Part shown: positions 4,301 through 29,487 of the stretch, in pieces
Position numbering within the stretch: the stretch's first letter is position 1
Layout: every line of letters starts with the position of its first letter
Source of the DNA: Thermodesulfobacteriota bacterium
GTDB taxonomy: Bacteria > Desulfobacterota > Desulfarculia > JACQYL01
Assembly (NCBI GenBank): GCA_963675595.2
Contig: CAXXLZ010000001.1
Location: forward strand, 576,001-640,000
Direction of reading: 5' to 3'
Length of the DNA: 64,000 nucleotides
Program-made: the position numbers and the translations under genes
The notes under the pieces: generated by a model
The model's database searches: none
What the model saw: the letters and a program-made list of their open reading frames with translations, nothing else
Told to the model about the DNA's origin: nothing

Positions 4301-4477
4301 TGTGCGATCCGCCGTGGCCTTTTGGGGCACGGCGGGTTATGAAGGGTCCGGATTCCGTTGCCGGGACTGGTCTGGACGCGGGTCCGGATTCACCGCATAC
4401 GTGTTGGACGAACCGTGCGCGGGAACAAAGACGTTTCGCCGGAGAGGCGGAAGAGAACGACTGGAGGAAAGGCGTTA

Positions 4478-6535
4478 ATGGCAAACGACGATACTGTGAT
4501 GGTGATATTCCAACCTTCCGCTCGCCGGGGGCGTGTAAAAAAAGGCTTGAACATTATCGAAGCCTCGCGTGACATCGGTGTGGATATTGAGGCCCTGTGC
4601 GGGGAGAAGAAAGTCTGCGGAAAATGCAAGGTCCGCATCGAGGAAGGGTACTTCGAAAAATATAATATAACGTCCAACATGTCCCATGTTTCTGAATGGC
4701 AGGAAGAGGAAGCCAAGTTCATCAAGGGCAAGGAAAAGGAAGAAGGCTTTCGCCTCGGCTGCGTGGCCAAGATAATGGACGACGTCCTGATTTTCGTGCC
4801 CGAGGAATCCCGCGCCGGTAAGCAGGTGGTGAGCAAGGCGGCCCGCGACATCCATATCGACAACAACCCCGCGGTGAAAACCTACTATGTGGAAATGGAT
4901 CCGCCGACCTTTGAAGAGCCGAGAGGCGACTTTGAGCGCATCGAGGACGAACTGGAAAGAGAGTTCGGTCTCAAGAATCTCCGGCCGGACATCCAGTGCC
5001 TCAGAGACATTCCGGCTGCGGTACGAGACGGCGACTGGAAGGTTACCGCGTGGGTGTGGAACGACCGCGAGGTCATTCGGGTCATGCCCGGAAAAGTGGA
5101 AGACTCCTACGGGATCGCCATCGATATCGGTACCACGACGGTTGCCGGGTATTTCTGCAACCTTCGCACCATGGAGGTGATCAACACCCGTTCCATGATG
5201 AATCCCCAGTGTAAGTACGGTGAGGACGTCATGGCCCGGATCACCTACCATATGATGAACGAGGGCGGCCTTAAACGAATGAGCGATGAGATCATCGCCG
5301 GCTTGAATACCATCATCGACGACCTCGTCGCGGGAACTCATCCGCCCAAGGATCGCAAGAAAAAGAAGAAGGCGGAGGAGGAAGAGCTGGAGGACTTGCC
5401 GGAAAAAGAAGATGAGAGCAAGTACCTGTGCCTGGATCGTGAGGACATCGTTGACCTTACCCTGGTGTTCAACACGGCCATGCATCACATCTGCCTTCAG
5501 CTCGACCCGCAGTACGTCGGACTGGCTCCCTTTCCGCCGGTAATCCATAAGGGGCTCGACGTCAAAGCACGCGATTTGGGACTGAACCTCAACAAGTGCG
5601 CCTTCGTGCACGTGCTCCCCAATGAAGCCGGTTTCGTGGGCGCGGACAACGTGGGCGTGCTCATCGCCGAGGAGCCGTACAAGAAGGATGAGATGGCGCT
5701 GCTCATCGACATCGGCACCAACGGTGAATTGGTTTTGGGCAACAAACACAAGATGGTTTCCTCCTCCTGTGCCACCGGTCCGGCCTTGGAAGGCGCTCAG
5801 CTCAGCTACGGCATGCGGGCGGCCCCGGGTGCCATCGAGCGTATCGAGATCGATCCGGAAACACACGAGGTCAGTTACAAGACCATCGGTTGTGATGCGT
5901 GGTCCAAGTTCGCGGATAAGAAGGACCTTAAGACCAAGGGCATCTGCGGGTCAGGTATTCTGGACGTGCTGGCCGAACTGTACAAGTCCGGCGTCATCAA
6001 CAAGGCCGGGCGGTTCAGCAAGGACCAGAAGTCCAATCGGTACCGGATCAATCCCGAAACCAAGCAGCCTGAATTCGTCATCGCGTGGTCCGACGAAACT
6101 TCCATTAAGAAGGACGTGGTGATTTCGCAGAAGGACATCCGGCAGATTCAGTTGGCCAAGGGTGCCTTGTATTGCGGGTGCAAGCTCATGATGCGCCGCA
6201 TGGGCGTGGATAAGGTGGACACCATCAAGATCGCCGGTGCGTTCGGTACGCATGTGGACCGGGCCAAGGCGTTGATCATGGGGCTGTTCCCCGACTGTGA
6301 AATCGAAAAGATTCATTCCGTGGGCAATGCCGCCGGTGACGGCGCGCGCTGCGCACTGCTGAACAAGGAGAAGCGGACTGAGGCCAACTGGGTGGCCAGA
6401 AACGTGGAATACATCGAACTGACGGTGGAAGAGGATTTCCAGAAGCAGTTCATGGAAGCCATGCAGATTCCGCACATGACCGATCCTTTCCCGCATCTGA
6501 GAGGCGTGGTGAAAGACGAGATTCTGGACCAGTAG
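4478..6535 (+). CDS. ASKHA-family reductive activator of corrinoid proteins (RACo/RACE) with N-terminal 2Fe-2S domain
   Basis: CGEKKVCGKC...RLGC ferredoxin motif, IDIGTTT, YGEDVMARI, GFVGAD, IDIGTNGE, CATGPALEG, GICGSG, GNAAGDGA. Likely start is ATG 4478 behind GGAGG. Confidence 0.95.
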   Translation: MANDDTVMVIFQPSARRGRVKKGLNIIEASRDIGVDIEALCGEKKVCGKCKVRIEEGYFEKYNITSNMSHVSEWQEEEAKFIKGKEKEEGFRLGCVAKIMDDVLIFVPEESRAGKQVVSKAARDIHIDNNPAVKTYYVEMDPPTFEEPRGDFERIEDELEREFGLKNLRPDIQCLRDIPAAVRDGDWKVTAWVWNDREVIRVMPGKVEDSYGIAIDIGTTTVAGYFCNLRTMEVINTRSMMNPQCKYGEDVMARITYHMMNEGGLKRMSDEIIAGLNTIIDDLVAGTHPPKDRKKKKKAEEEELEDLPEKEDESKYLCLDREDIVDLTLVFNTAMHHICLQLDPQYVGLAPFPPVIHKGLDVKARDLGLNLNKCAFVHVLPNEAGFVGADNVGVLIAEEPYKKDEMALLIDIGTNGELVLGNKHKMVSSSCATGPALEGAQLSYGMRAAPGAIERIEIDPETHEVSYKTIGCDAWSKFADKKDLKTKGICGSGILDVLAELYKSGVINKAGRFSKDQKSNRYRINPETKQPEFVIAWSDETSIKKDVVISQKDIRQIQLAKGALYCGCKLMMRRMGVDKVDTIKIAGAFGTHVDRAKALIMGLFPDCEIEKIHSVGNAAGDGARCALLNKEKRTEANWVARNVEYIELTVEEDFQKQFMEAMQIPHMTDPFPHLRGVVKDEILDQ

Positions 6536-7525: not shown

Positions 7526-8587
7526 ATGGCGAAACAGCTACTCATTGATGCGTACCACGGAAAGAAGACCAAGGGTGTTCCGTGGGTGCCCTATGCCGGG
7601 GTTCATTGCGCATTCGTCATCGGGGAACCCGGTGACAAGTACATGCAGGACCCCGAGCTCCTGGCCAAGGGCGTGGTGGAGACGGCCAAGCTGTACAAGG
7701 CGGACGGAATTCCGTTGGTCTTCGACCTTTCCGTTGAGGCCACTTCCATGGGTTGCGGCATCAAATGGTGGCCGGATAACGTGCCCAGCGTAACGACGCA
7801 CCCCGCCGCCGGCTGCAGCGTAGCGGAAGCCGGACTGAAGATTCCCGGTCCCACCGACGGTCGCTGGCCCGTCCTCATCGAAGCGGCCAAGATCGCCAAA
7901 CCTCAACTGGACGAACTGGATTGCGCACTGATGGGCCTGCTTTGCGGGCCTCTCACCTTGGCCGCCCATCTCAAAGGCGTCAAAGTGTTTACGGATGTCT
8001 ACAAAGACAAAGCGGCCGCGCATGACGTAATCTCGTTCTCAGGCAAGGTGGCAGCCAAATCCGCCGAGATCTACGCCGACATGGGATGCGACATCATCGC
8101 CATCGTCGATCCCGTGGCTTCGCAGATCAAAGATGAAACCTTCCAAGAATTCGTAACCCCCAATTGCCAAGAAGCCATCAAAGTGATCCACGAACACGGA
8201 AAGACCTCCTCTTTCTTCATTTGTGGAGACGCCACCAAGGTGATGAAGTCCGTGGCTACCCTCGGGACCCATGGATTCGCCATCGACGAGCAGTTAAACA
8301 TGAACTTTGTCCGCGACATCGCTCTGAAATACGGCGTTGGATTCGGCGGCAACTTGAAGCTCACCCTGGCTCTTTCCCTGGGTCTGCTTTCTCCTCGTGA
8401 AGACGCCATTGTGAGTCTGGCCGCGGGAGGGTGCCACGGCTACACCTTCGCCCCTGGGTGAGACATGCCTTACGATGTTCCGGTGGAACATATGCAGCAG
8501 GCCATGGAGGCGAGAGACTGGTACTACGAATACTACGCCGCCTATCCCGATGATCCCGATATCGCGAAGACCTTCAAGGTCGCGTAA
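7526..8587 (+). CDS. Putative selenocysteine-containing MtaA/UroD-fold methyltransferase (353 aa, Sec312)
   Basis: TGA at 8459-8461 falls in FAPG-U-DMPYDVP, equivalent to PG-C-DL of the paralogue. The frame stays open for 41 more codons to TAA at 8585-8587, which overlaps the SD of the next gene. Confidence 0.88.
8475..8491 (+). promoter_or_regulatory. Bacterial SECIS-like hairpin
   Basis: ATGTTCC-GGT-GGAACAT, a perfect 7-bp stem with a G-containing loop starting 20 nt after the UGA. Confidence 0.75.
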
Positions 8588-9018: not shown

Positions 9019-9051
9019 CCATAACCGCCGGGTGCTTCCCGGCGGTTATGG
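9019..9051 (+). terminator. Strong hairpin (terminator or mRNA-stabilising stem)
   Basis: CCATAACCGCCGGG-TGCTT-CCCGGCGGTTATGG, a 14-bp stem with only a weak U-tract. Confidence 0.55.
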
Positions 9052-9585: not shown

Positions 9586-9591
9586 ATTCCC

Positions 9592-9876: not shown

Positions 9877-9900
9877 GTTGCGTGTCCATGGTTCGGATGC

Positions 9901-10830: not shown

Positions 10831-10871
10831 GTTGAGAGGTCGCCAAGAGCGGGTTGTATTAGGAGGATCAG

Positions 10872-11150
10872 ATGGCAAGAGTGACAGTGGACGTGCTGCT
10901 GACGGATTTCAGGCAGTGACTGGCCTGCGTCTACATGGCGGAATCGGTAAAGGCTTTACCGAATGAGATACAAGACCTGATCGAAGTAAGAGAGTGGGAC
11001 ATGCGCACAAGGGAGGGAGTGGTCAGGTTCAAGCAATTGAAGGCGAAATCTCTTCCCAGCGTTGCCCTCAACGACGAACTCGTGTTCGAAGCCAATATCC
11101 CTCCTCAGGAAGACCTGATTCAGGCAATTAGGGACCGATACGTCGGATGA
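10872..11150 (+). CDS. Putative selenoprotein, thioredoxin-fold UxxC protein (92 aa, Sec16)
   Basis: SD AGGAGG at 10861 and ATG 10872 give MARVTVDVLLTDFRQ-U-LACVYMAES, in frame with the track ORF at 10935. It aligns with DSVQ-C-AACGYMTEA of 8599..8985. Confidence 0.9.
10944..10962 (+). promoter_or_regulatory. Bacterial SECIS-like hairpin
   Basis: TCGGTAAA-GGC-TTTACCGA, a perfect 8-bp stem with a GG loop 32 nt after the UGA at 10917-10919. Confidence 0.65.
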
Positions 11151-11515
11151 AAGGGGGAAGGTGCGCGGGCATGCGCGCTGCTTTTCACAAGTGTCTTTGC
11201 GTTTCATCACGGAAGGAAGGCGTCGCGAACGGTGCTCTGCCGTACCGGCGATGCCGGAGACGGTTTCTGGAAGGCGGACGACACCCGTGAGGCTTGAGAA
11301 TGCTCTTTGGTGCGGTCGTACCGGCCCGGTCGGCTTTTACGCTGCGGGTGGTTGGAACGGCCCGGAGAGGACGGTGGGGGCTCTTGGCGAATCCTCCGCA
11401 TGCCGAATTCGTCGATTCGGAGTCAAACGAAATTTCGTAACCGGACTTTAGCTTGAAATACAGGGAGTGCCGGGGGAATCCATACGACGGCTGTTTTCCC
11501 CTCGCGAAGGTCTAC

Positions 11516-12857: not shown

Positions 12858-13931
12858 ATGACGCAACCATCGTCGATTGCAGGCTCGGCCAAAGCCAAGG
12901 TGGTACTGCTGGCGGGGTTTCTGGGGGCGGGAAAGACCACGCTGTTGAAGCGAATCTTATCCTGGGAGGGCGACCTTTCGGACACCGTTGTGCTGGTGAA
13001 TGAGTTCGGCGACGTGGGCATCGACGGAGCTCTGCTTCAGCAAGCGGGTTCCGACGTGATCGAACTGACCAGCGGCTGCATTTGCTGCACGCTGGCGGCC
13101 GACTTAATCCAGAGTCTGAAAGGCATCGCGGAGCGTTTCAATCCGAAACGAATCATGATCGAAGCCACGGGTGTTGCAGATCCCACTTCCATTACGGCCG
13201 TGCTGGATCAGCCTTTCATCAGGGATGTAATGGAGCATCAATCCACGCTGACCGTTCTTGACGCCGATTTCTGGGAGGCGAGGGAAAACTTCGGGCCGCT
13301 GTTTTATCGTCAGTTGAGCGAGGGGGATCTGATTCTTCTCAACAAGATCGACTTGCTCGAACCGGAACAGGTCCCCGTGTTCCTAAAGGAGATTCATCAA
13401 GAGTTTCCCGGTAGTAGGGTAGTGCCTACGGTGCACTGCGCAGTGGACCCGGACACTTTGTGGAATGTGCGATCCAAACGACACGGCGGAACCGAGTTGG
13501 CTCCTTTTTTCCCCACGCTCTCCGTCGAGCAAGGCGATGAGCAGGGAACCGCCGAACACCACCCACATCATCATAGTGATCATCATCACCATGGGCACGA
13601 TCACCACCATGGGCACGATCACCACCATGACTGCGAGTCCCATGCGGGGATTCAGGCCCCGGAGGCGGGATATGTCAGCTTCTATTTTCGGGACGACCGG
13701 CCCTTGGACGAAAGCCTTTTCGCGAGTTTCCTGGCGGAATTACCTTGGGAGGTGTTTCGGGTGAAAGGTCCGGTACGTTTCCCCGACAAGACCTTGTTGG
13801 TGAATTTCGTCGGAGGCAAGGCCGAATGGATCGACTGGGAGGACGTGGGCACAAGCCTTGCCTTTGTCGCTTGGAAAGTGGACTCCCGGGAGATTCTTTC
13901 AAAGCTGGAACGGTGTTTTGCCCCTTCTTGA
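12858..13931 (+). CDS. COG0523/CobW-family G3E GTPase metallochaperone with His-rich insert
   Basis: GFLGAGKTT, VNEFG, GCICC, EATG, LNKID, a His-rich stretch and C-terminal RVKG. Confidence 0.93.
   Translation: MTQPSSIAGSAKAKVVLLAGFLGAGKTTLLKRILSWEGDLSDTVVLVNEFGDVGIDGALLQQAGSDVIELTSGCICCTLAADLIQSLKGIAERFNPKRIMIEATGVADPTSITAVLDQPFIRDVMEHQSTLTVLDADFWEARENFGPLFYRQLSEGDLILLNKIDLLEPEQVPVFLKEIHQEFPGSRVVPTVHCAVDPDTLWNVRSKRHGGTELAPFFPTLSVEQGDEQGTAEHHPHHHSDHHHHGHDHHHGHDHHHDCESHAGIQAPEAGYVSFYFRDDRPLDESLFASFLAELPWEVFRVKGPVRFPDKTLLVNFVGGKAEWIDWEDVGTSLAFVAWKVDSREILSKLERCFAPS
13582..13629 (+). repeat. Tandem 18-bp repeat encoding (HHHGHD)n
   Basis: ATCACCATGGGCACG/ATCACCACCATGGGCACG units, about 2.5 copies. 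Confidence 0.75.
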
Positions 13932-14221: not shown

Positions 14222-15229
14222 ATGGCGGGAAAGACGTTCGTCTTTCTGATCACCGGCTTTTTGGGATCGGGGAAGACCACATTTCTCAACCGGGTTATCC
14301 GCCAATTCCCGGGAGATCGCAAGCTGATGATCCTGATGAATGAATTCGGCGAGGTCGACGTGGACGGTACGCTGGTCGAGGGTGAGGACCTCGATATGGT
14401 GGAGATCAGCAAAGGTTCCATCTTCTGTGCCTGTGTTAAGACCGATTTCGTCAAGGCGCTGAATTCCATCGCCCAGACCATCCGTCCCGACGTGCTGCTC
14501 ATCGAATCCACGGGCGTGGCCAACCCATCCGACTTGAAGAGAGATCTGAGACTATCGATTTTTAAGGATCGATTCCAATTTCAAGAGCAGTTCTGCATGA
14601 TCGACGCCGGTCACTTCCTGGACGCCTACGGTGCCTACCAGTCCATTGAGAAGCAGTTGGCTTCGTCCACGGTTTTCTTGATCAACAAGACGGATACCGC
14701 CGATGGGGGAACCATCGCTCGGATCAAAGAGGTGGTTCGGGAGCACCATCCGGACCCCGTGTTTCACGAAACGACTTTCGCCGAAGTCGATGTAAGTCAT
14801 CTTCTCTTGCCCGGAGAAACCGAGGAAGCGTTCTCGGAAGAGGGACCGGATACACCCATGACTCCGGAAGAACTGGACAGCTACTGTGAAAAATTGTTAG
14901 AAGATCCTGAAGCGCAGGTGACCCCTCCGGACCGTCTTCTTTCCGCGGTGTACCGGTGGGAAGGCGAAAGTATTGATGCCTTCAAGAAAACGGCCGGCAA
15001 TCTTCCTAAAGGGATTGTGCGTTCCAAGGGGTTCCTGGTGGATGGCGAGGAAACGGTCCTGTTCAGTTATGTTCTGGGGGACTGGAAGTTGATGCCGCGA
15101 CAGGTTCCCGACGGAAGGGCGGGGCAGAAAAACCTGATCGTGTTTATCGGTTCCCCGGAGTCCATGGCGGAGCTTGCCGAAAGAGCCTCGGAGGCGAATC
15201 TTTCGCCGGCGCCCAAGAACGAAGCATGA
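14222..15229 (+). CDS. Second COG0523/CobW-family GTPase
   Basis: GFLGSGKTT, MNEFG, variant metal motif GSIFCAC, ESTG, INKTD, RSKG. Confidence 0.9.
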   Translation: MAGKTFVFLITGFLGSGKTTFLNRVIRQFPGDRKLMILMNEFGEVDVDGTLVEGEDLDMVEISKGSIFCACVKTDFVKALNSIAQTIRPDVLLIESTGVANPSDLKRDLRLSIFKDRFQFQEQFCMIDAGHFLDAYGAYQSIEKQLASSTVFLINKTDTADGGTIARIKEVVREHHPDPVFHETTFAEVDVSHLLLPGETEEAFSEEGPDTPMTPEELDSYCEKLLEDPEAQVTPPDRLLSAVYRWEGESIDAFKKTAGNLPKGIVRSKGFLVDGEETVLFSYVLGDWKLMPRQVPDGRAGQKNLIVFIGSPESMAELAERASEANLSPAPKNEA

Positions 15230-15668: not shown

Positions 15669-16562
15669 ATGGACCCCAAGGATAACCCTTCGCGACCGGA
15701 TCGGAAACCGCCGTGGCTCAAGCGACGGTTATCGGCGGGAGAGGTGCGGGACGAAGTTCGGGGGCTTCTTAAGGAGAGCTCCCTGCACACGGTCTGCGAG
15801 GCCGCTCGATGCCCCAACCTATCCGAGTGTTTCTCTCGGAGGACGGCCACCGTTCTGATTCTGGGCGACCGCTGCACGCGCAACTGTGCGTTTTGCGCTG
15901 TTGAACACGGCGCTGCGAATCCGCCGGATCCCGAAGAACCGAATCGCGTGGCCGACTTGAGCACGAAACTGGGGTTACGGTACATCGTGGTGACCTCCGT
16001 GACCCGAGACGACTTGGCGGACGGCGGAGCCCACCAATTCGCCGAAACCATCCGCGCGATCCGGACGCGGATGCCCTCGACCGGTGTGGAGGTTCTGGTG
16101 CCGGATTTTCAGGGGTCGGAAGGCTCATTGCGGGTTGTGCTCGAGGCGGGTCCCGACGTGCTGAACCACAACATGGAAACCGTTCCTCGACTCTATTCAG
16201 AGGTACGTCGCGGAGCGGACTACCGCCGGTCCTTGAGATTGCTTCGTTCAGCCTCCGATTTCTCCTCTTCGGCGACCAAGTCCGGTCTTATGTTGGGGCT
16301 CGGTGAGACGGCCGAAGAAGTCCGAGGAGCCATGGCGGATCTTGTTGAGGCGGGTTGTCGCATCCTGACCCTTGGCCAGTATCTCAGACCCTCACCGAGC
16401 CACTATCCGGTGAAACGGTATGTGCACCCCGAGGAGTTTGAAAAGTGGGAGGGGGAAGGGCGCGATATGGGGTTCGAGGCCGTGACCGCAGGGCCTTTCG
16501 TCCGGAGTTCCTATCGAGCGGGCGAAGTGTTTCAAACCCTGCTTTCGCGAAATCGGGATTGA
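15669..16562 (+). CDS. lipA: Lipoyl synthase
   Basis: KPPWLK, TVCEAARCPNLSEC, CTRNCAFC, TSVTRDDL, GQYLRP, VRSSY. Confidence 0.96.
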   Translation: MDPKDNPSRPDRKPPWLKRRLSAGEVRDEVRGLLKESSLHTVCEAARCPNLSECFSRRTATVLILGDRCTRNCAFCAVEHGAANPPDPEEPNRVADLSTKLGLRYIVVTSVTRDDLADGGAHQFAETIRAIRTRMPSTGVEVLVPDFQGSEGSLRVVLEAGPDVLNHNMETVPRLYSEVRRGADYRRSLRLLRSASDFSSSATKSGLMLGLGETAEEVRGAMADLVEAGCRILTLGQYLRPSPSHYPVKRYVHPEEFEKWEGEGRDMGFEAVTAGPFVRSSYRAGEVFQTLLSRNRD

Positions 16563-19962: not shown

Positions 19963-20319
19963 TCAGGTCCGGCCATAGTCATCCTCGGACCTTTCGATAT
20001 CGTCCTCTCCGAAGTACTCGCCGGTCTGGACTTCAATGAACACCAGATCATCCGCGCCCGGGTTTCGGACCCGATGCCAGGTTTGTACGGGCAGGTCCAA
20101 AGATCGGCCTACGGTCAACTCGATTTCTTCGTGGTTCTTGGTGACCACCGCACTGCCGCTGATGACGTACCAGTGCTCGGAACGATGAAAATGACGTTGA
20201 TAGCTCAGCCTTTGGGCTGGATAAACGGTAATTCGTTTCACCTTGTGGTTTGGACGATCGGACAGAACTTCGAAAAAACCCCAGGGTCTATGGTCCTCTT
20301 GCCGGTTCTCTCGGGTCAT
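19963..20319 (-). CDS. Mannose-6-phosphate isomerase type II cupin domain protein
   Basis: RPWG, LSYQRHFHRSEHW, IEVQTGEYFGEDDIER..DDYGR. Confidence 0.92.
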   Translation of the reverse strand: MTRENRQEDHRPWGFFEVLSDRPNHKVKRITVYPAQRLSYQRHFHRSEHWYVISGSAVVTKNHEEIELTVGRSLDLPVQTWHRVRNPGADDLVFIEVQTGEYFGEDDIERSEDDYGRT

Positions 20320-20731
20320 CTATTGCTCCGTGTTCATGGAGGAGGCCCTGCTGATCCGTTCGTTCGAGGCGCTCGCCGCAGACGGGCTTCACGGCTTTCC
20401 ACCCATGACGCATTGGGAGGACTCGGTTCACGGGAGGATTGAAATGCAACGGGCGCTCCTGAAAAGCGCCTTCGCCGCGCCCTCGAGGACGGTCCGCGTT
20501 CGCATCGCGCCGTGCCTGCGTTTCTGCGGCCCGACAGGACTATACTTTACCCATATCGATTCTCTTGGCAACAAAGATCGACGAGAGGCGCCGATTGATT
20601 TGGGGGATTTCGCCGGAGAGGTGGGCGGATACTGGAAAGAGAAGGGGATGATACGAGGGTTCGTTTGGGGCGGCTCCAAAGCCGTGCCGTACGAACCCTC
20701 GCGTATGCATGTGCATGCATGGGTTCCAAGA

Positions 20732-21877
20732 TTACAGCAACGCGGCTGCTTCCGCCCGGATGCCTGCTTGTGAGGCGACGTCGAGAAATCTCTTGAGTCC
20801 TTCCTTGGACGAATCCGTTTGGATGGTAACCCATCGGGAGAGTTTGGCCAAGGCTTGGCCGGTCTCGATAATTTCACGGCTCATTTCCACGCCTTTTCCG
20901 ATATTCTCCGCTTTGCCCACCAAGTAGAGAACGGCGCCCGCATTGAGGCAGGTCATGTCGACGCACTCGGGATGTCCGGTTCCGGTGATGACCTTCATGA
21001 ATCGGACGAGTTCCTTGTGGATATCCCCCGTCGCCGCGATGGATGGGTAGTCGGCCCGCTCGAGCCCCACATCCTCGGGTGCCAGAAGGAAGGTCTGTTC
21101 GTCCCCGTCGGTGGTGAATTCGTGCACCAGAGTCTCGCCGAGAATCGACATCTCATCCATTCCCTTCTTTTTTTCGGCATCAAACCCGTGCACCACCATG
21201 GCACGCTGATACCCGATATCCTTCATCACATGGCTTACTTTGGGGACGAGCTCCTCCGCATAGACTCCTCGCAAGCCGTGTGTGGGGCGACAGGGACTTG
21301 CCAGAGATGCGGCGATATTGAGCGTGGATCCAAAACGAATCTGACTCAGGATCCGTCCCAGCGATTGGGGGTGGACCTTGGAACTCATGCCGTTGAACAG
21401 GCCGATGCCCTCTTTTCGGATGCTTTCCGCCACCTTATCCACTTCGCACTCGACGTCGATGCCGATGCCTTCAAGCAGGTCCACCGTGCCGCAGGAGGAA
21501 GTCAGGGCTCTGGCTCCGTGGCGTGCCATTCGTGCGCCGCCCGCGGCGGCGACCACGGATGCGGCGGTGCTTACGTTGAACGTCTTGAGCTGATCCATAC
21601 CGGTTCCCGAGTTCTCGACGATGGGGGCGTCCAGTTCGCCCTCAACGGCCGCCGTATCGAGTTCCACAATAGCCTGCCAGGCACCGGCGATTTCCTGGTA
21701 GGTCTCCCCCTTGGAAACGAGAGCCGAGAGAAACGCGCCCTGTTGCAGGTCCGGCTGTTGATTCAGCAGAATGCTGCGGAACATCTCGTAGCTCTCATTA
21801 CGGCTCAGGTCCTCTTTTCGGATGAGCTTCTGGATGTTCGCACCGAACGATTTCAATGATTCTTCCGACCAACTCAT
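20732..21877 (-). CDS. TrpD-like (glycosyltransferase family 3) phosphoribosyltransferase, divergent
   Basis: NSGTGMD..KTFNVST, RHGARALTSSCGTVDLLE, VVHG...GMDE, LNAGAVLY. Not located in a trp operon. Confidence 0.85.
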   Translation of the reverse strand: MSWSEESLKSFGANIQKLIRKEDLSRNESYEMFRSILLNQQPDLQQGAFLSALVSKGETYQEIAGAWQAIVELDTAAVEGELDAPIVENSGTGMDQLKTFNVSTAASVVAAAGGARMARHGARALTSSCGTVDLLEGIGIDVECEVDKVAESIRKEGIGLFNGMSSKVHPQSLGRILSQIRFGSTLNIAASLASPCRPTHGLRGVYAEELVPKVSHVMKDIGYQRAMVVHGFDAEKKKGMDEMSILGETLVHEFTTDGDEQTFLLAPEDVGLERADYPSIAATGDIHKELVRFMKVITGTGHPECVDMTCLNAGAVLYLVGKAENIGKGVEMSREIIETGQALAKLSRWVTIQTDSSKEGLKRFLDVASQAGIRAEAAALL

Positions 21878-21891
21878 TTCTCACGTCTCCT

Positions 21892-22875
21892 TTAACGATT
21901 TCTGCTCGGATAGAGGAGGACCTTCATGCCCAGGCGATTTTCGACGATTTTGAGCGCTTCCTCCAGCTCGCCCAGACCCATGCGATGCGAAATGAGGTCC
22001 TTGACGGGGACTTCTCCCTCGGCAATGGCACGCAAAGCCTCGATGCCGTGTCTGAAGCTGCAGCCATAGGCGCCTACAATTGTCTGCTCGTGGTAGTGCA
22101 ACTGGTTGAAGCTCACGGGAAGTTCATCCTCCGACGGATGCAGCCCGGAGAACACCACTAGGCGACCGCGCGGATTCATTGCCCCAAGCGCCTCCCGATA
22201 GGCTTGCACGGAACCTACCGCCACAATGCAGGCGTCGAATTTCTTCTTCCCGGGGCTCGCCATGCCGCCGGCGATTTCTCGACGACGCTCATCCGGTTCT
22301 ATGGGAAAAGGTTCGGCTCCCATGGAACGTGACGCTCTCGCCAACAAGGTTCCCGCGGGTCCGGCACCCCAGATTCCCACGGTGTCGCCCCGTTGGAGGC
22401 GCGCCAGTTCGAGCGCATTGAGGCAACAGGAAAGCGGTTCCGCAAATACGGCCTGCTCCGCGCTGAGACCCTCGTGAACGGGAATAACACTCCTTGCCGG
22501 GGCGATGACGTATTGAGCGAAGCCGCCATCTCGATGAAACCCCATGATCTGCATGCCGCGACAGAGGTTTTCCGCGCCTCTCAGACAAGCCGGGCATTCG
22601 CCGCACCAAACGCCCGGATACACATAAACCCGTTGACCCTCTTTCAGATCGGCGACATGATCACCCCTCTTGCGCACGATCCCAACGACTTCCTCACCGG
22701 GGACTCTCGGCAAGGTGAGATCGCGATGACCCACCCTGATGATCTTGAGGTCCGTGCGACAAAGGCCGGTTACTTCCACTTCTATGAGTACCTCGTCGTC
22801 CTCGATGTCCCGTACCGGCAGGTTCGCCTGTTCAAAATCCCCGATTGTTCTGACCAGAACGGCCGACATTTCCAT
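21892..22875 (-). CDS. Zn-dependent medium-chain alcohol dehydrogenase (Tdh/sorbitol dehydrogenase-like)
   Basis: GLCRTD, PGEE (in place of GHE), CGECPACLRGAENLC, EPLSC, GAGPAG. Confidence 0.9.
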   Translation of the reverse strand: MEMSAVLVRTIGDFEQANLPVRDIEDDEVLIEVEVTGLCRTDLKIIRVGHRDLTLPRVPGEEVVGIVRKRGDHVADLKEGQRVYVYPGVWCGECPACLRGAENLCRGMQIMGFHRDGGFAQYVIAPARSVIPVHEGLSAEQAVFAEPLSCCLNALELARLQRGDTVGIWGAGPAGTLLARASRSMGAEPFPIEPDERRREIAGGMASPGKKKFDACIVAVGSVQAYREALGAMNPRGRLVVFSGLHPSEDELPVSFNQLHYHEQTIVGAYGCSFRHGIEALRAIAEGEVPVKDLISHRMGLGELEEALKIVENRLGMKVLLYPSRNR

Positions 22876-22975
22876 GGTCCGATTCCTCTCGGCGAGACGT
22901 ATACTCTTGCAGTGACGGCCCCGAGGTATACGTCCCTGCGCGAAAATTTCTCGAGGCCCTGAACAAACAAGCACG

Positions 22976-23019
22976 AAAAAAAGGGTTCCGACAGCCGAAA
23001 CCGGCCATCGGAACCCTTT
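22976..23019 (-). terminator. Intrinsic terminator, riboswitch expression platform
   Basis: Minus strand AAGGGTTCCGATGGCCG-GTTT-CGGCTGTCGGAACCCTT followed by a T run, located in the leader between aptamer and start codon. Confidence 0.8.
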
Positions 23020-23049
23020 GCCATCGGATTCCTTACCTATCGAAGCGTC

Positions 23050-23215
23050 GGTCGTCTTCTGACTTCCAGGTCTTCCGCAAGATCGACGCCTTCCCATACC
23101 GGTACGTCTTGCGCCCGATACAGTGGCTTAACTCCGGATCTGCGTCCCCGGTTACAGCGGCGGGACCGTCACGGATTTACACCGTGTTCCGTTACCGAAC
23201 TTCTAGACTTTATGT
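23050..23215 (-). ncRNA. Cobalamin (AdoCbl) riboswitch
   Basis: Minus strand GGAACACGGTGTAAATCCGTGACGGTCCCGCCGCTGTAA...GCCACTG...GGGAAGGC...GAAGTCAGAAGAC, the canonical B12-element motifs in order. Confidence 0.92.
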
Positions 23216-23309: not shown

Positions 23310-26009
23310 TCAATCGGAGGCATCCAATACGTTGCGAATCGTCCTTATGAAATGACCGAGATCCAGAGGCTTCATCATGTATTCTTTAATCCCCGCCCGC
23401 TTCGCCCGGTCCGCGTCCAATCGATCATTATGGCCGGAACAGATGATAACGGGGATGTCGGGACGAATTTTCATGGCCTCCATCGCCAAGCGATCTCCCG
23501 GCATCTCCGGCATGGACATGTCCGTGATGATCAAATCGAATGCGTCGGATTCCGCCTGAAAGAAATTCAGCGCTTCCTTGCTGCTTGTCTTTCCCACCAC
23601 TGTGTATCCATGCCGTTCAAGCATCTGCGTAAGGAGACTGACGAGGGAGGGTTCATCATCCACCAGCAGGATATGCTCGTTCCCCTTGGGAGGATCGGAA
23701 CCTTCAACGGCTTGGGTATCGGCCCGGAGATCGGTTTTGGGAAGCCATACTTCGGCCGTCGTCCCTTTCCCGATTTCGCTCGTCAGTGTGATCAAGCCAT
23801 TGTGTTTTTCCACGATACCGAACACCACGGCCAGCCCCATGCCCAAACCTTTGTCCACGTCCTTGGTGGTGAAATAGGGATCGAATACACGATCCATGAT
23901 ATCAGGATCGATACCGCTGCCGGAATCCTTCACGGATAGTCTCACGTATTCACCCGCAGTCAAGCGGTCATAGTGAGAAGCGGCTTGTTCATCGAGGACA
24001 ACGGGTTCCAGCATCACTTCCAAAACGCCGGTTTCGTCTCCCATGGCATGCACCGAGTTGCTGCACAGATTCATGAGGATCTGGTTGATTTCCGTGGGAT
24101 TGGCCAGAACGATCTCGGATTCACAGGAAATCCTCTGCCGGATTTCGATGGTGGAAGGGATCGTCGAACGAATCAATTTCATAGATTCTTTGACCGTCTC
24201 GCAGATATCGATGGGCTTTCTTGTATCCGGCGTCTTGCGGGCGAACGTCATAATTTGTCGTACGACCTCTTTTGCGCGGAAAGAGGCGGTCAGTATTTCC
24301 TGCAAACATTCTCCGGCGGGATCGGATTTGGGTACGTCGAGCATGGAGAGTTCGGCATTTCCCAAGATAATTCCCACGATGTTGTTGATTTCATGAGCGA
24401 TACCGCCCACAAGTGTGCCGATGGCCTCCATTTTGTGGGCCTGACGCAGCTGCGCTTCGAGTTCCTCCTTTTCAGCTTCCGCCCGCTTGCGCTCGGTGAT
24501 GTCGCGGAAACTCCACACCCTTCCAATGGTCTCATTGCCCAGGATCTGGGGTCGCGAATAGCGTTCGAAGATGCGCCCGTCCCTGAACTCGATCGTGTCG
24601 AAGCTCTTGGCTTCAGGGTGCCCGTGTAATTCCCCGATGGTCCCAAATGAAAGCTCGGGGGCCCGCAATTCGTCGAGCACATAGGCCAGGGCCCGATCGT
24701 CGTCCCCGGAACGAAGGCCGGCATCCGGTATCTTCCACATTTCCAGGAAGCGTTGATTGAACAGCCGGATCTCTCCATTGCGATCCACCACCAGAATTCC
24801 ATCGGCGGTCGCTTCGAGCGTTGCCTGAAGCTGCGAAAGAAACTCGTCCCTTTGCTCTTCCGCCCGCCTTCGATCCTCCTCGATCTCAATGTTGTGGAGT
24901 GCAAAGGCGATGTCGTCGACCACTTCTCGAATCAAGGCTTGCTCTTCCTCGTCCTCGGCTAGGTGCGAAGGGATGGATGCGCACAACCATCCGTAAAGCT
25001 GGTCTTCGTACTGCAGCCGAAGAGTCATTCCCGCTCTGCCGTCGTACTCCGAGGCCAAAGAACAATCAGTGCAGGTCGAAGTGGGATACTGGGTGACGAT
25101 CGGGTCCACCTCTCGAAGTACTCGGCGAGTGCAATCGGGAAACTCTCCCTGTTCCATTCGTTCAATCAACGGAAGAAACGCATCACCCAGTCCTGCCTCG
25201 GCGGTCGCCTTCAGGCCGCCCGCCTCGTCCTTCAGGGCAATCCAGGTATTGAAATAACCGCGACTTTCCACGAGCAGATCGCAGGCCCCTTGAAGCAAAC
25301 GGTCTCGGTGATTTTCCCTGACGATGAGCTTATCGACGCGGCTTACGGCCCGCAGCACACGATTGAGGTGCGCCACTTTTTCTTCCGCCTGCCTGCGTTG
25401 GATGATTTCTCGTCGAAGGTGTTCGTTGGTCTTTCTGAGCTCCGCCGTGCGTTCCTCCACCAACGCTTCCAAGTGACGGCGATGTTGCGTCAGCTCTCTT
25501 TCCGACGCCAGGCGTGAGGCCGTGGTTCCCACCAAACCGGCCACGGCCAGATAAACATCGAGCAGGTCTTTGGAGAACGGCTTCGTGGTCTTTTGGCCAA
25601 CGAGCATGACTTCCGTAACCTGATTCTCGCGGAGCACGGGTAGAAAAGCACCGGCAAGCGGATCGGCTGCGGAAATGGTCCTCGTTGTGAGGAAGCCGCT
25701 GTCCATGGTTTCCACGGCCGCCTCCACGATTTCCGATTCACTCTTTTTTCGATCGGACTCTGAGAATCCGAGCACGTTCACAAGGCTGGGGAGATCTTTT
25801 CCCACCCCTTGACGCGAGACATCCCAATGCCGAACACTAATGATCCCGTCGGAGCGCCGAGCCCAGAAAGCAACCAGGTGTGCGCCAAAAAAACTGCGCA
25901 GGGCTTTTCCCGCTTCGGTCCACACATCCTGTTGTGTCGTCAGTCCCCCTAAATACTGCGCCAACCGGATGACCGGGTAATTCTCTTGACCGCCATAGGC
26001 GTTCCCCAT
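23310..26009 (-). CDS. Hybrid sensor histidine kinase (GAF-like, GAF, PAS, HisKA, HATPase, REC)
   Basis: KMEAIGTLVGGIAHEINN, NLCSN, DSGSG, FDPYFTTK, GLGMGL, LVDDE...ITDMSMP. Confidence 0.93.
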   Translation of the reverse strand: MGNAYGGQENYPVIRLAQYLGGLTTQQDVWTEAGKALRSFFGAHLVAFWARRSDGIISVRHWDVSRQGVGKDLPSLVNVLGFSESDRKKSESEIVEAAVETMDSGFLTTRTISAADPLAGAFLPVLRENQVTEVMLVGQKTTKPFSKDLLDVYLAVAGLVGTTASRLASERELTQHRRHLEALVEERTAELRKTNEHLRREIIQRRQAEEKVAHLNRVLRAVSRVDKLIVRENHRDRLLQGACDLLVESRGYFNTWIALKDEAGGLKATAEAGLGDAFLPLIERMEQGEFPDCTRRVLREVDPIVTQYPTSTCTDCSLASEYDGRAGMTLRLQYEDQLYGWLCASIPSHLAEDEEEQALIREVVDDIAFALHNIEIEEDRRRAEEQRDEFLSQLQATLEATADGILVVDRNGEIRLFNQRFLEMWKIPDAGLRSGDDDRALAYVLDELRAPELSFGTIGELHGHPEAKSFDTIEFRDGRIFERYSRPQILGNETIGRVWSFRDITERKRAEAEKEELEAQLRQAHKMEAIGTLVGGIAHEINNIVGIILGNAELSMLDVPKSDPAGECLQEILTASFRAKEVVRQIMTFARKTPDTRKPIDICETVKESMKLIRSTIPSTIEIRQRISCESEIVLANPTEINQILMNLCSNSVHAMGDETGVLEVMLEPVVLDEQAASHYDRLTAGEYVRLSVKDSGSGIDPDIMDRVFDPYFTTKDVDKGLGMGLAVVFGIVEKHNGLITLTSEIGKGTTAEVWLPKTDLRADTQAVEGSDPPKGNEHILLVDDEPSLVSLLTQMLERHGYTVVGKTSSKEALNFFQAESDAFDLIITDMSMPEMPGDRLAMEAMKIRPDIPVIICSGHNDRLDADRAKRAGIKEYMMKPLDLGHFIRTIRNVLDASD

Positions 26010-26019
26010 GATTCGCCCC

Positions 26020-27525
26020 TTACACAGGTCCCAGATACAGGTTTTCCACAAAGAAATCGTCGAACTCAGGGCAGTTCGTCAGATGAATCAATTCGGCTCG
26101 TTCCCCCACGTCTTTCAGACGTTGGACGGAAGAGGGGCACAGCAGTGCCTCCTCGCATCCCAACAAGGCCGTATTTCCGCACAGTTCGATCCGATCGGAT
26201 GGAATGCACGGCAACAGCCCAATGGCCTGTGCGCCGGCGACATTGAGCCGGCGGCTGAAAGTCCCCGAAACACAGATGCGTTGCAGGTCTTCGTTTCCCA
26301 AACCGGCCTTTGCTTCCAAGACCCTTACGGCCCCGCAGACGGCGGCTTTGGTCTCTTGGAACTCCGTCACGTCTTCTTGCGTGAGGACAATGGTCCGTTC
26401 GTCATGCACCAGAGAGAACCCCTCTTGTGGAACGGTCGATGTGAAGCGACCCGTGGGGCTCAAGACGCGGGAGCCCACAAGGCGGGCTATCACATCGATG
26501 AGTTGGGCGCCTTCGACGGCGAAACCTGACCCTTCCGATCCCGATGCCGTCTGCCGAACTCGGTTGATCGCCGATCCCGCAAACGGAGGGTTCTTGGCGG
26601 GTGATGTGACTCTCAGCACTCGTCCGTCCCACAAGGCGATGCCCGAAGCGAAGTCCAGGTCCATGAAGAGGCCGGGGCTTTCGTCCTCAAGGAGACCTGA
26701 GGCCATGACGCCTGCAAGCAGGTGAGAGCCTCCCTGTTCTTTCAAAGGCGGCACGATCTCGACTTCGGCTTCCGGATGAATGGCCCACTGGCCCGCCCAG
26801 TCTCGTGCAGGTTCCGGACGGCCGCGAGCCCGATCCGACGACGAGGTCTCCGCCGCGGCATTCCCCACCAGCGCGACCCGCACCACTCGGCCGAGATCGA
26901 TTCCTTCCCGAACGGCGATGTCCCAAAGCCCCTCTTTCACGGCTTCCAAGGTGCGGCGGCCTAAGGCTATGCCGCCCAAAAGGGATTCGGGATCGTTGGT
27001 TGACCCCGCTGCATCATCCGGATCCGGGTCGTCGGGCGCATATGGGCCGTAACGTCCTGCCAGGCGTTTGCCGTCGCCGAGATCACACAAAGAAAGACCG
27101 ATGTCGATGGGACCGACGTCCACAGCGGCACCGCAGGGCCTTTGGACCCCCTGGGGCAGGTCTTGTCTCAAATCCTCCTCGGGAAGTCTCTTGCACCGCT
27201 CACGATTGATGTCCAAGGGCCTCCACACGGACTCCGGCGTCGGTGCCGGGATCGTCACCCACAGGTCTTCTTCGGGTATTACCTGGCACGCCAGTCGGAT
27301 GCCCCGGGCCAGTTCCTCGGTGTTCAGGTGCAGGCGTTCTGCGGTATTGGGCGCTCCCACATTCCCCTTTTCGATAGATACCCGGCAGAGCCCGCATCCG
27401 CCGATTCCGCTGCATCCCGAGCGGACTCCGGCGCCTGCGGCATCCAGTATCCGACGCAAAGAGGGCCCGGAGACAAAGGATATCCTTCGTTCTCCATCTG
27501 CCCGCCTGACGGTTAATATGGGCAC
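26020..27525 (-). CDS. Degenerate ASKHA/RACo-like protein with 2Fe-2S domain
   Basis: CSGIGGCGLC...RLACQ is intact and GNTALLG is present, but the ATPase motifs are altered (VDVGPID, MDLDFASG). Confidence 0.8.
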   Translation of the reverse strand: MPILTVRRADGERRISFVSGPSLRRILDAAGAGVRSGCSGIGGCGLCRVSIEKGNVGAPNTAERLHLNTEELARGIRLACQVIPEEDLWVTIPAPTPESVWRPLDINRERCKRLPEEDLRQDLPQGVQRPCGAAVDVGPIDIGLSLCDLGDGKRLAGRYGPYAPDDPDPDDAAGSTNDPESLLGGIALGRRTLEAVKEGLWDIAVREGIDLGRVVRVALVGNAAAETSSSDRARGRPEPARDWAGQWAIHPEAEVEIVPPLKEQGGSHLLAGVMASGLLEDESPGLFMDLDFASGIALWDGRVLRVTSPAKNPPFAGSAINRVRQTASGSEGSGFAVEGAQLIDVIARLVGSRVLSPTGRFTSTVPQEGFSLVHDERTIVLTQEDVTEFQETKAAVCGAVRVLEAKAGLGNEDLQRICVSGTFSRRLNVAGAQAIGLLPCIPSDRIELCGNTALLGCEEALLCPSSVQRLKDVGERAELIHLTNCPEFDDFFVENLYLGPV

Positions 27526-27528
27526 GGA

Positions 27529-28542
27529 TTACCTTTCCCCGCAAGCGGCCGAAACCATGGCGGCGATGTTCTCGGGCGCGGCTTCCGGAGGAATTTCGCA
27601 GCCCGAAGAGAGAATGAACCCACCACGCCGGGCAAATATACGTAACAAACGGTGTGATTCATCCGAAATTTGCTCGGGAGTGCCTTCCACAAAGGAGAGC
27701 GGCTTGATATTGCCGTTGAAACAGGTATGGGGGAGCGCCTCCATGGCCTGTTGCGGGTCCACGCAGAAATCGAGGTTGGCGAGGTTCACGTGGGCTTGGG
27801 GATAGAAGCGGAGAATCGGCGCCACGGGACCTGCCGTGTGCAGCCAGTTTACAGCCGACCCCGCCTGTTTGAAGGCGGCGAAGATGCGTTGAAGCCGGGG
27901 CAGCAGGAATTCTCGGTAAAACCCGGGGGGGACCACGTCCGGTGATGCGGAAGGATCGAAAACGATGGGCAAGTGGGCGCCCGCCTCCAACTGTGCCGTA
28001 CCGAAACGGATGATTACTTCGGAGGCGAAGTCCAGGAGACGCTCAAAAAGCTCCGGGGCGTCAATGGCCAAGTAAAGGCTCGTCTCCGCACCGGCCAACT
28101 GCATGGCCAAAGTCATGGGGCCCACCACGCAGCCCACCACCAGAACGTCGTTCCCCACTTCCCGCCGCAGGATGCCCGCAGCCTTCAACAGCTCGGGCAT
28201 ACGGCCCTCGGTGCGTGGGTCGGGCACGAGAAGCGTGTCAATATCCATGCCTGCAGAAAAGACGTAGGACGACACCACCGGATACCGACCGGTTCCATAG
28301 CTCAAAACCGAACCCACGGCTTCCGTTTCCACGCCCACGTCCATTAACGCGAAAACCGCGTCGTAGCCGTAGCGGTTGAGCGCCTTTGCCTGGCAGCGAG
28401 CCAGAAGCTCGCCGTCCCGGACGTAATGGTTCAAGTCCACTCCGCTCAGCACTGCGGCATGGCCGAACACCTGGGCGATCACCGGCACACGGTCCGTCCC
28501 CCGAAAGCTCACAGCCGCCTGAATGCGTTCCAGGCTATTCAA
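27529..28542 (-). CDS. MtaA/UroD-family methyltransferase-like protein
   Basis: MNSLERI..DRVPV, VGPMT, LHTAG (HxC Cys lost), GNIKP, ILSSGCEIP. Confidence 0.9.
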   Translation of the reverse strand: MNSLERIQAAVSFRGTDRVPVIAQVFGHAAVLSGVDLNHYVRDGELLARCQAKALNRYGYDAVFALMDVGVETEAVGSVLSYGTGRYPVVSSYVFSAGMDIDTLLVPDPRTEGRMPELLKAAGILRREVGNDVLVVGCVVGPMTLAMQLAGAETSLYLAIDAPELFERLLDFASEVIIRFGTAQLEAGAHLPIVFDPSASPDVVPPGFYREFLLPRLQRIFAAFKQAGSAVNWLHTAGPVAPILRFYPQAHVNLANLDFCVDPQQAMEALPHTCFNGNIKPLSFVEGTPEQISDESHRLLRIFARRGGFILSSGCEIPPEAAPENIAAMVSAACGER

Positions 28543-28848
28543 CGTTCCCGATCCATTTCACAAGCGACCGGGACCGGTTCGCCGGGGACCGTCCTTCGCG
28601 CCCTCCCTCCTCAATGTGTCCCATATAAGGACGGGCGGGAGTCCCGGTTCGGCTCAAGAGAAACATTCCTTGCTCCTATTCACGGGGGCATTGAAGCCTT
28701 GTAAGCGTTTCTGCTCCGCCCCGTTTCGGGATATACCCCGTCCGCAATGCCTTATGCTCCCGCTCAGCCGAAGATGTGGAAGACCTCTCAATCGGCGTTG
28801 AAAAGGGCGGCGTGGATTTTTCCAAGGAGCCCCGAGTCACCATAATCA

Positions 28849-29487
28849 TCAGCCGGTCTCCTGCAACGCTTCGAGGTGGTGCAGGCCGTCGAAAGCGGTC
28901 TGAGCCACATAGTCCACGTTGAGGCTCTCCGGGGAAGATTGCTTGAGGGCGGCCCCTCCCGCCATGAGGTGCATGTGTCCCAGGCCACGTTCGACCATCT
29001 TCTCCTTCACTCCCCGGACTTGAGGCAGCACGGTGGAAATGAGCCCGCTGATGCCCACAACGAAGGTTCTCTCCGCTTCGGCGGTATCGAGCAACCTTTC
29101 CACGGGACAATCTTTGCCGCAGTCCACCACCCGGTACCCTGAAGCGGTCAGGACCATCTTGAGAATATTCTTACCCAAATCATGGACATCCCCTTCCAGG
29201 GTCGCGACCACGGCGGCGCCTTTGCTTTTCCGGAGGGGTTTATCGGGGGGGAAAATTTCTTTCATCACGCCCGTGGCGGCGCGCCCGCAAAGCATGATTT
29301 CCAGGAGATTGAATTCATCCACCGTGCACTTGGCGTTCAATCTCGCCATGGCTCCTTCCAGGCCTTCCGTGATGATTCGTTCACGCGGGACGCCCGAATC
29401 CAGAAGCTTTCGAGCCTCCCCCACGGATCGTTCCTGATCGCCTTCAAGCAACGCCTCAATGAGTGGATCCATGATGGTATAGTACAT
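28849..29487 (-). CDS. Corrinoid-binding protein
   Basis: EGDVHDLGKNIL, ISGLIS, MAGGAA. Confidence 0.92.
   Translation of the reverse strand: MYYTIMDPLIEALLEGDQERSVGEARKLLDSGVPRERIITEGLEGAMARLNAKCTVDEFNLLEIMLCGRAATGVMKEIFPPDKPLRKSKGAAVVATLEGDVHDLGKNILKMVLTASGYRVVDCGKDCPVERLLDTAEAERTFVVGISGLISTVLPQVRGVKEKMVERGLGHMHLMAGGAALKQSSPESLNVDYVAQTAFDGLHHLEALQETG

Follow-up and report, generated by a model that had tools for sequence, protein, structure and literature searches.

Several described systems resemble the locus reported here, a two-gene operon in a 64,000-nucleotide stretch of a Thermodesulfobacteriota bacterium genome (assembly GCA_963675595.2, contig CAXXLZ010000001.1, positions 576,001 to 640,000; this whole stretch is called the window). 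The operon encodes a dehydrogenase of the MDR superfamily and a protein similar to TrpD, the anthranilate phosphoribosyltransferase, and is preceded by a cobalamin (B12) riboswitch. The bza operon (bzaF or bzaAB, bzaC, bzaD, bzaE and cobT) is likewise riboswitch-controlled, feeds CobT and is patchy among anaerobes. Its enzymes (ThiC-like radical SAM proteins and methyltransferases) belong to families unrelated to those of the pair. TrpD (TIGR01245; PDB 1zyk and 4hkm) has the two-domain fold and both Pfam domains in common with the TrpD-like protein, which differs by extra N- and C-terminal helices, by the lack of trp context for its genes and by B12-riboswitch control instead. YbiB/TrpD2 and the class II nucleoside or AMP phosphorylases are of the same superfamily, with weak NCBIfam matches (28-57 bits); we assume that these families lack the D-E residue pair kept by the TrpD-like protein. 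The dehydrogenase shares the ADH_N and ADH_zinc_N domains, the Cys4 site, the catalytic Cys and Glu and the G-x-G-x-x-G motif with MDR polyol and threonine dehydrogenases (4ej6, 2dfv; NF003808), from which it differs by motifs of its own, by a zinc-ligand His that is mostly Glu and by scores that reach no equivalog cut-off. CobT would be the functional partner, fused to the pair or adjoining it, and the TrpD-like protein lies outside the DBI_PRT family. ArsAB is, as we understand it, a specialised CobT homologue.

The pair is read here as a CobT-coupled, B12-repressed accessory module of the branch of cobamide metabolism in which the lower ligand is activated and the nucleotide loop is built, in synthesis and in salvage. 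From comparison of sequences, the probability of this reading is put at about 0.6. In its best form, the pair would act with CobT, just before it.

The Operon and Its Riboswitch

The aptamer of the window matches the Rfam family RF00174 at 23190..23054 on the minus strand with 78.2 bits (E 1.4e-17, Rfam covariance-model scan), above the curated gathering score of 31.5 bits. Cobalamin is the sole Rfam family matched in the whole 64-kb window. A preliminary description, made from the letters alone, had placed a B12 aptamer and a terminator ahead of a two-gene operon; the Rfam Cobalamin model bears this out, and the limits 20732-23215 given there fit. The alignments of the aptamers of the window and of two other loci (L034 and L037) span only model positions 47-167 of 189, and most other loci align to positions 1-189. 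The outer helix of this aptamer sub-type may be divergent or absent. Another covariance model, named R1, was built from eight aptamers of loci in the phylum. It gives 129.9 bits at 23195..23053, a match by construction as the window is among its eight building sequences.

The terminator hairpin begins 35 bases past the aptamer and is located between the aptamer and the first start codon. Its stem has 18 pairs, 10 of them G-C, with a 4-nt loop, and is followed by TTTTTCG. Together, aptamer and terminator should be a platform able to switch the downstream genes, with a predicted stop of transcription at high B12. The dehydrogenase most likely starts at the ATG at 22875, which is 7 nt past the stretch GAGAGGAA. 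The ATG at 23097, the start of a longer open reading frame, falls within the aptamer and was rejected.

Between the stop codon of the dehydrogenase and the TrpD-like gene there are 14 nt. The next gene on the same strand is 412 nt beyond the TrpD-like gene, past two terminator-like hairpins; the terminator consensus scan finds 5 sites here, and shuffled sequences give an expectation of 2.9, which is weak evidence for these hairpins. The transcription unit is the riboswitch leader with two genes. It is flanked by corrinoid methyltransferase genes, and no trp gene is found near it in the window, as the preliminary description had noted.

Distribution, Pairing and Riboswitch Control

In a sample of 401 genomes of the phylum, the TrpD-like gene is called at E<=1e-60 in 17. 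The nearest homologues are named Syntrophobacteraceae and Desulfobacterales. A pattern scan over one genome per prokaryotic species finds at least 557 loci of the pair, and the wider counts below are taken from the best 80 of these at least 557 loci. All counts rest on 97 locus records (94 distinct), namely the 80 and the 17 loci of the phylum, three of them shared. The bacteria among the best 80 loci are Thermodesulfobacteriota, Myxococcota, Nitrospirota, Thermoleophilia, Verrucomicrobiota (including Akkermansia muciniphila), Lentisphaerae, Dehalococcoidia, Geobacter, Peptococcaceae and Spirochaetes. The archaea are Methanotrichaceae, Methanomassiliicoccales and Methanophagales.

The dehydrogenase gene adjoins the TrpD-like gene in 74 of the 80 loci, 73 times upstream and once downstream. 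Adjacency was counted by tblastn; greedy calling of open reading frames puts antisense frames over the dehydrogenase in some loci (cluster 3). The two genes are also adjacent in 15 of the 17 loci of the phylum. Of the two exceptions, one is a contig that ends at the TrpD-like gene, and the other is a genome (G208) whose dehydrogenase is encoded elsewhere, fused to CobT. No third gene is a constant neighbour of the two. The earlier proposal that the pair serves the neighbouring corrinoid enzymes is not specific: the neighbours differ between genomes, despite the methyltransferases that flank the operon here.

The Rfam Cobalamin riboswitch is seen in nine of the 15 loci of the phylum that were given to Rfam. 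With R1, 52 of the 80 loci show a riboswitch on the same strand, located 1.0-2.2 kb ahead of the TrpD-like gene. The commonest distance, 1.1-1.25 kb, corresponds to the length of the dehydrogenase gene. R1 finds the riboswitch in 11 of the 17 loci of the phylum, and in 60 of the 94 distinct loci combined. None of 18 canonical trpD loci, used as a control, has an R1 match at E<=0.01. The riboswitch is beyond chance, since 52 of 80 related loci stand against zero of 18 canonical ones. These counts, synteny with cobT, cobS, cobU or cbiZ, and fusions of the dehydrogenase to CobT uphold the link of the homologues to B12 on which the preliminary description depended.

A B12-independent bypass of a B12-dependent reaction, like metE or nrd under riboswitches and unrelated to cobamide assembly, might also take the form seen in most loci: a stand-alone riboswitch-controlled operon with varying neighbours. 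We know of no reaction dependent on B12 whose place such a pair could take. The dehydrogenase-CobT fusion and the operons with cobS, cobU or cbiZ, described below, are unexpected for a bypass enzyme, and this explanation is given very little credit here.

One of the loci without a riboswitch, L048, has a different context. At 6206-12470, the pair follows genes for a ZnuA-like protein, an ABC ATPase and an ABC-3 permease (znuA-C-B) on the same strand, and an M28 peptidase gene comes after it. This suggests a metal-uptake context for that locus alone.

The TrpD-like Protein

The TrpD-like protein of the window matches PF00591 with 181 bits and PF02885 with 57 bits. It also scores 238.4 bits against TIGR01245, the trpD equivalog, above the cut-off of 199.05. 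Its homologues carry the database name "anthranilate phosphoribosyltransferase", and clusters in the protein atlas bear only that name. A second ordinary anthranilate phosphoribosyltransferase would be in line with this score and these names. The same genome has a true trpD, which scores 406 bits and is located on another contig within a trpE-G-D-C-F operon, so that the TrpD-like gene is not its only trpD, a point that the preliminary description had left to be settled. A single canonical trpD, at 352-433 bits, accompanies the TrpD-like gene in every one of the 18 pair holders of the phylum; the TrpD-like gene itself scores 225-289 bits in the 17 other genomes, plus one broken copy at 136 bits. 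Within a genome, TrpD-like protein and TrpD share about 33-35% identity. A FastTree phylogeny of 111 sequences, rooted at the midpoint, places 92 TrpD-like proteins in one clade with support 0.951 and 18 canonical TrpDs in another with support 0.902.

The changes of GTGGD to GTGMD and of KHGN to RHGA, pointed out in the preliminary description, are real by comparison with the 18 canonical TrpDs. Among the 92 TrpD-like proteins, the loop is GTGMD in 87, GTGSD in four and GTGAD in one, and never GTGGD. KHGN is likewise seen in none of the 92, its Asn being always Ala or Ser, and all 18 canonical TrpDs have both KHGN and GTGGD. The Arg of the canonical G-I-R-T aligns with Gly (R-F-G-S-T), and another Arg is present two residues earlier. 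We take the replaced positions to be the PRPP (phosphoribosyl pyrophosphate) and anthranilate sites, the Arg of G-I/V-R-T belonging to the latter. PDB titles list the Mycobacterium TrpD variants N138A, P180A, R193L and R194A, which agrees with these being studied active-site residues.

The TrpD-like protein is, by phylogeny and motifs, a diverged paralogue and not a tryptophan enzyme, since it falls in a separate clade, its motifs are changed and the true trpD is in a trp operon elsewhere. Its genes are under the control of B12, not tryptophan. A second TrpD, as the database names say, is the least probable of all explanations considered here.

Other features are retained. The D-E pair of G-x-D-E, which presumably holds Mg-PRPP in TrpD, is kept in all TrpD-like members including the window protein. 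The T-x-N-x-S stretch and the frame of the G-T-G-x-D loop are retained too. The AlphaFold2 model of the protein has pLDDT 93 and pTM 0.92. Its fold matches are TrpD structures only, the best being Sulfolobus TrpD with PRPP and anthranilate (1zyk, TM 0.82/0.91). No solved structure was found within the TrpD-like clade. The Nostoc "TrpD 2" structure 1vqu was considered as a member and rejected, as its motifs are canonical.

Two sub-types are seen within the clade, GTGMD/RHGA and GTGSD/KKGA. Both have the dehydrogenase as partner, and each has the riboswitch in several of its loci. A third paralogue of the TrpD family, outside both clades of the tree, is present in one related genome (L008, G002:C104:21293-22294). 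There the GTGGD loop is wholly replaced (MEHES in the alignment) and KHGN is replaced by KSGM.

The Partner Dehydrogenase

The dehydrogenase of the window matches PF08240 with 99 bits and PF00107 with 36.9 bits. None of the NCBIfam equivalogs is over its cut-off. The top match is threonine dehydrogenase NF003808, with 131.9 bits against a cut-off of 380, and the score against TIGR00692 (L-threonine 3-dehydrogenase) is 124 bits with a cut-off of 458. The closest solved relative is 4ej6, a "putative zinc-binding dehydrogenase" from structural genomics. The idea that the dehydrogenase makes the aminopropanol linker, put forward in the preliminary description, finds nothing beyond this sub-threshold similarity (132 against 380 bits) and was rejected.

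The catalytic Cys (Cys39) is kept in 67 of 68 partner dehydrogenases, and Glu146, the Glu of E-P-L, in all 68. The structural-zinc Cys4 is present in 68 of 68. The outer glycines of the Rossmann motif G-x-G-x-x-G are seen in 67-68 of 68, and the acidic residue that ends the second Rossmann strand in all. The GEE described earlier for the window protein, in place of the GHE of most MDR enzymes, is confirmed. The position is Glu in 52 of 68 family members and His in 15, with one row gapped, which makes it, as far as the alignment tells, a sub-clade trait. The motifs C-R-T-D-L-K, G-H-R-D-L, F-S-G-L, H-Y-x-E and G-A-Y-G-C characterize the family. Fused forms share them, as do the dehydrogenases paired with the second TrpD-like sub-type. 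The dehydrogenase looks like an active NAD-type enzyme of the polyol/threonine branch, and its Arg-rich motifs suggest that the substrate is probably anionic. A complex prediction for the dehydrogenase with the TrpD-like protein has a score of 0.00, which is evidence neither way.

Fusions and Synteny with Cobamide Genes

Two loci (L033 and L038) encode a protein of about 700 amino acids with the dehydrogenase as its N-terminal half and CobT as its C-terminal half (PF02277, 407 and 413 bits). This fusion is found in many Desulfobulbales. Four of the 18 pair-holding genomes have CobT within open frames of 705-747 amino acids, and the TrpD-like gene is directly upstream in three of the four. A search with the L033 fusion returns 575 matches; all 120 that are listed carry PF02277 and an ADH domain, and they include the cultured Desulfogranum, Desulforhopalus and Desulfopila. 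Of 56 columns that are near-invariant in CobT, 48 are kept in all four fused domains, and the remaining changes are conservative; judged by these residues, the domains look functional. They form one clade in the CobT tree (no support values read). Where a genome has several cobT copies, one of them is given over to the fusion with the dehydrogenase; one genome (G162) has four copies.

The dehydrogenase is also found fused to the TrpD-like protein, in a metagenomic sequence (P0122) where the two correspond to residues 12-354 and 369-725. A 787-amino acid "fusion" with a peptidase domain (P0121) was rejected, as its long low-complexity middle looks like a read-through artefact. No fusion of the TrpD-like protein to CobT turned up in a search for longer proteins, which is weak evidence.

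Two side observations concern the fused and other long forms. In L038 (G091), the TrpD-like gene at 9837-10921, beside the intact dehydrogenase-CobT fusion, is broken by an in-frame TAG. The gene may be a pseudogene, or the TAG may be recoded or reflect an error in sequencing. Unusually long CobT open frames of 547-980 amino acids are seen in L089 (5384-7081, minus strand), G284:C144, G166:C18, G101:C12, G347:C291 and G332:C29. The L089 protein of 565 amino acids has a 220-amino acid N-terminal part without a Pfam match. These long frames may be further CobT fusions of other kinds.

Cobamide genes also adjoin the unfused pair. L030 and L034 have the order riboswitch-dehydrogenase-TrpD-like-cobT-cobS, to which L034 adds a gene for a CobD-like aminotransferase. 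In L108, cobT stands between the riboswitch and the pair (riboswitch-cobT-dehydrogenase-TrpD-like). The TrpD-like gene is followed by cobT in L068 and by cbiZ and cobT in L106. The pair is followed by cbiZ in L029, a locus of the phylum, and by cbiZ-riboswitch-btuB-btuF-btuC in L118 of Geobacter. The order in L099 of ANME-1 is cobT-TrpD-like-dehydrogenase. In L089, cobA/hemD-dehydrogenase-TrpD-like lies beside a divergent riboswitch-cobT-cobS unit. L092 of Thermoleophilia has TrpD-like-riboswitch-cobU-cobT, and in four other Thermoleophilia loci (L084, L086, L094 and L110) a second B12 riboswitch and cobT follow the pair in the same way. In these five loci and L118, the second riboswitch is directly after the TrpD-like gene, and two riboswitch units stand head to tail.

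Co-Occurrence with CobT, Base Pathways and Ring Synthesis

CobT is found in all 18 pair-holding genomes of the phylum, including all 17 holders in the sample of 401, in which the base rate of CobT is 281 of 401. Among 50 further genomes, 42 have a CobT match above the cut-off. The pair would work with CobT and not in its place, because CobT is present in 18 of 18 holders and, in several loci, adjoins the pair or is fused to the dehydrogenase. The preliminary description had proposed a non-orthologous replacement of CobT, that is, a PRPP-driven route for the nucleotide loop independent of CobT. Riboswitch control, the PRPP-type fold and the changed acceptor-site residues are compatible with such a route. 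It is at odds with the CobT counts, with the fused CobT domains that look intact and with the two cobT genes of the host, and PRPP transfer would give the wrong anomer. The replacement is considered very unlikely.

The genome of the window has an operon riboswitch-bzaF-bzaC-bzaD-bzaE-cobT on another contig (names read from Pfam domains and gene order) and cobU-cobT-cobS 12 kb before the window. It also has CbiC. It is predicted from this gene content to make a benzimidazole cobamide unaided, and the pair would be an addition. Nine of the 18 holders have a second ThiC-family gene of BzaF/BzaAB type, mostly beside cobT, and the pair occurs without it in the other nine. BluB over the cut-off is seen in none of the 18.

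CbiC was not found in three Dehalococcoidales metagenome-assembled genomes (MAGs) and in one A. muciniphila MAG, in which CobT and the pair are present. With the caveat that these are MAGs, such holders fit the lower-ligand, loop or salvage branch, not ring synthesis. A role in the synthesis of the corrin ring was rejected as the pair is present where CbiC is not found. These MAGs also accord with a helper of salvage or remodelling, in which the pair recycles or converts lower-ligand nucleotides or bases from imported corrinoids that are cut and rebuilt. The position of cbiZ after the pair in L029, L106 and L118, and btuB-btuF-btuC in L118, point the same way. Beyond L029 of the phylum set, cbiZ follows the pair in only two of the 80 loci. 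Many holders, the genome of the window included, have CbiC and a full bza operon, and no chemistry is evident for a PRPP enzyme on alpha-nucleotides. A salvage helper is thought improbable, somewhat more so than the supply of a donor, which is discussed next.

The main rival is the regeneration of nicotinate mononucleotide (NaMN). Here the TrpD-like enzyme would remake NaMN from PRPP and the nicotinate released by CobT, which would keep CobT supplied with its ribosyl donor at all times, with a net reaction of base and PRPP to alpha-ribotide. The need for a donor would be common to all holders, whether bza-bearing producers, apparent salvagers without CbiC or archaea. By reasoning on structures, nicotinate resembles anthranilate: both are aromatic carboxylates in which the nitrogen lies two bonds away from the carbon bearing the carboxyl group. 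In 11 of the 18 holders, no match to the PncB family was found. The other seven, including the genome of the window, have one (two strong and five weak), and the PncB family shows no clean complementary pattern with the pair. NaMN is a normal intermediate of NAD synthesis. Regeneration leaves the dehydrogenase without a role, although it is the most constant partner (74 of 80 loci) and is fused to CobT. The lack of a TrpD-like-CobT fusion also speaks weakly against it. This rival is regarded as unlikely.

Possible Role of the Pair

A CobT-coupled accessory module could work as follows. At low B12, the operon would be read through. The TrpD-like enzyme would use PRPP to phosphoribosylate a nitrogen nucleophile that is not anthranilate; an acceptor of larger size or lower polarity might fit its rebuilt pocket. 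Acting in the middle, the dehydrogenase would oxidise or reduce the adduct or the partner of the adduct. The product, which may be a lower-ligand base, a base precursor or a ribosyl donor, would be handed to CobT. The order TrpD-like enzyme, dehydrogenase, CobT is suggested because the dehydrogenase is the one that is fused to each of the other partners. A more specific version, in which PRPP and a common nitrogen compound are the starting materials from which the pair makes or matures the lower ligand, or an activated form of it, for a dedicated CobT, can only be offered tentatively; it is possible but rather doubtful.

Several points weigh against the accessory module. With 17 holders among 401 genomes, the pair is too rare to be a core step. 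The counts include related genomes, which are not independent of one another. CobT is common, at 70% of the phylum sample, and its presence in 17 of 17 holders is only a modest enrichment. It is missed or weak in eight of the 50 further genomes, which are MAGs of uncertain completeness or archaea with a divergent CobT. No cob gene is seen in the examined stretch in about 80 of the 94 distinct loci. A riboswitch match is missing in 28 of the 80 loci, among them Akkermansia and L048. Five of these have less than 1.1 kb of sequence upstream, and six come from archaea; a recheck of ten with Rfam gave no further riboswitch. The host already has the complete bza operon and two cobT genes, and there is no clean complementarity of the pair with the known base pathways (BzaF-type and BluB). 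PRPP transferases yield beta-glycosides, and cobamides need the alpha form. Finally, any assignment of substrates would be a guess.

Other Genes in the Window

The coordinates of the operon and of other features are given in Table 1. The window contains two separate corrinoid methyltransferase gene sets, at 4358-8461 and at 26020-29487. The mannose-6-phosphate-isomerase-type cupin and the nucleotidyl transferase are encoded by separate genes, the cupin first. These two domains are usually fused, in the reverse order.

Table 1. Features of the window, with positions counted from its first nucleotide.
Feature	Position	Strand	Remark
Cobalamin (B12) riboswitch aptamer	23054..23195	-	Rfam RF00174
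Intrinsic terminator, expression platform	22973..23019	-	Hairpin 23019..22980, then T-run
MDR-superfamily dehydrogenase gene, 327 amino acids, "ADH-like", GEE variant	21892..22875	-	PF08240, PF00107
TrpD-like phosphoribosyltransferase-fold gene, 381 amino acids, GTGMD and RHGA	20732..21877	-	PF00591, PF02885
Two weak terminator-like hairpins after the operon	20595..20577 and 20470..20452 (span 20452..20595)	-	Consensus scan only
RACo-type reductive activators	4358..6535; 27525..26020	+; -	One per corrinoid set
URO-D/MtaA-like methyltransferases	7526..8461; 28542..27529	+; -	One per corrinoid set
B12-binding corrinoid protein	29487..28849	-	Second corrinoid set only
GAF-PAS hybrid histidine kinase	26051..23310	-	After second corrinoid set
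Two tandem CobW/HypB/UreG-family GTPase genes	12858-13931, 14222-15229	+	
Lipoyl-synthase-like radical SAM gene	15669-16562		After the GTPase pair
Mannose-6-phosphate-isomerase-type cupin	19963-20319	-	
Nucleotidyl transferase with ManC beta-helix	18540-19676	-	

Implications

No paper on the function of the pair was found in the full-text literature; subscription papers, regulon databases and supplements were outside this scope, and an earlier listing in a B12 regulon is possible. Such genes may already have been noted in Dehalococcoides. A figure legend in PMC8620254 lists trpD and "DH, dehydrogenase" in low-coverage regions of Chlorobium that also hold cobalamin genes, and that legend makes no functional statement on the two. 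The matching text of PMC12452182 concerns T-box trp operons. The terms "anthranilate", "fusion" and "fused" are absent from what a term search covers of PMC6461909 (Shelton et al.).

Widespread and uncharacterised, the pair accompanies CobT under misleading names: every database calls its members "anthranilate phosphoribosyltransferase" and "alcohol dehydrogenase". The choice of the lower ligand decides who shares B12 in guts, sediments and dechlorinating consortia, and cobamide type is predicted from genomes by bluB, bza and cobT alone. Should the pair supply or modify the lower ligand or its donor, present cobamide predictions would be incomplete and hundreds of trpD annotations would be wrong. 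If the pair makes or matures the ligand itself, there would be a third route of lower-ligand supply, independent of BluB and BzaF, spread over hundreds of anaerobes, both bacteria and archaea, among them Akkermansia, Geobacter, Dehalococcoidales and methanogens. With supply or modification of either ligand or donor, the pair would be a missing piece of anaerobic B12 chemistry, reachable with two soluble enzymes.

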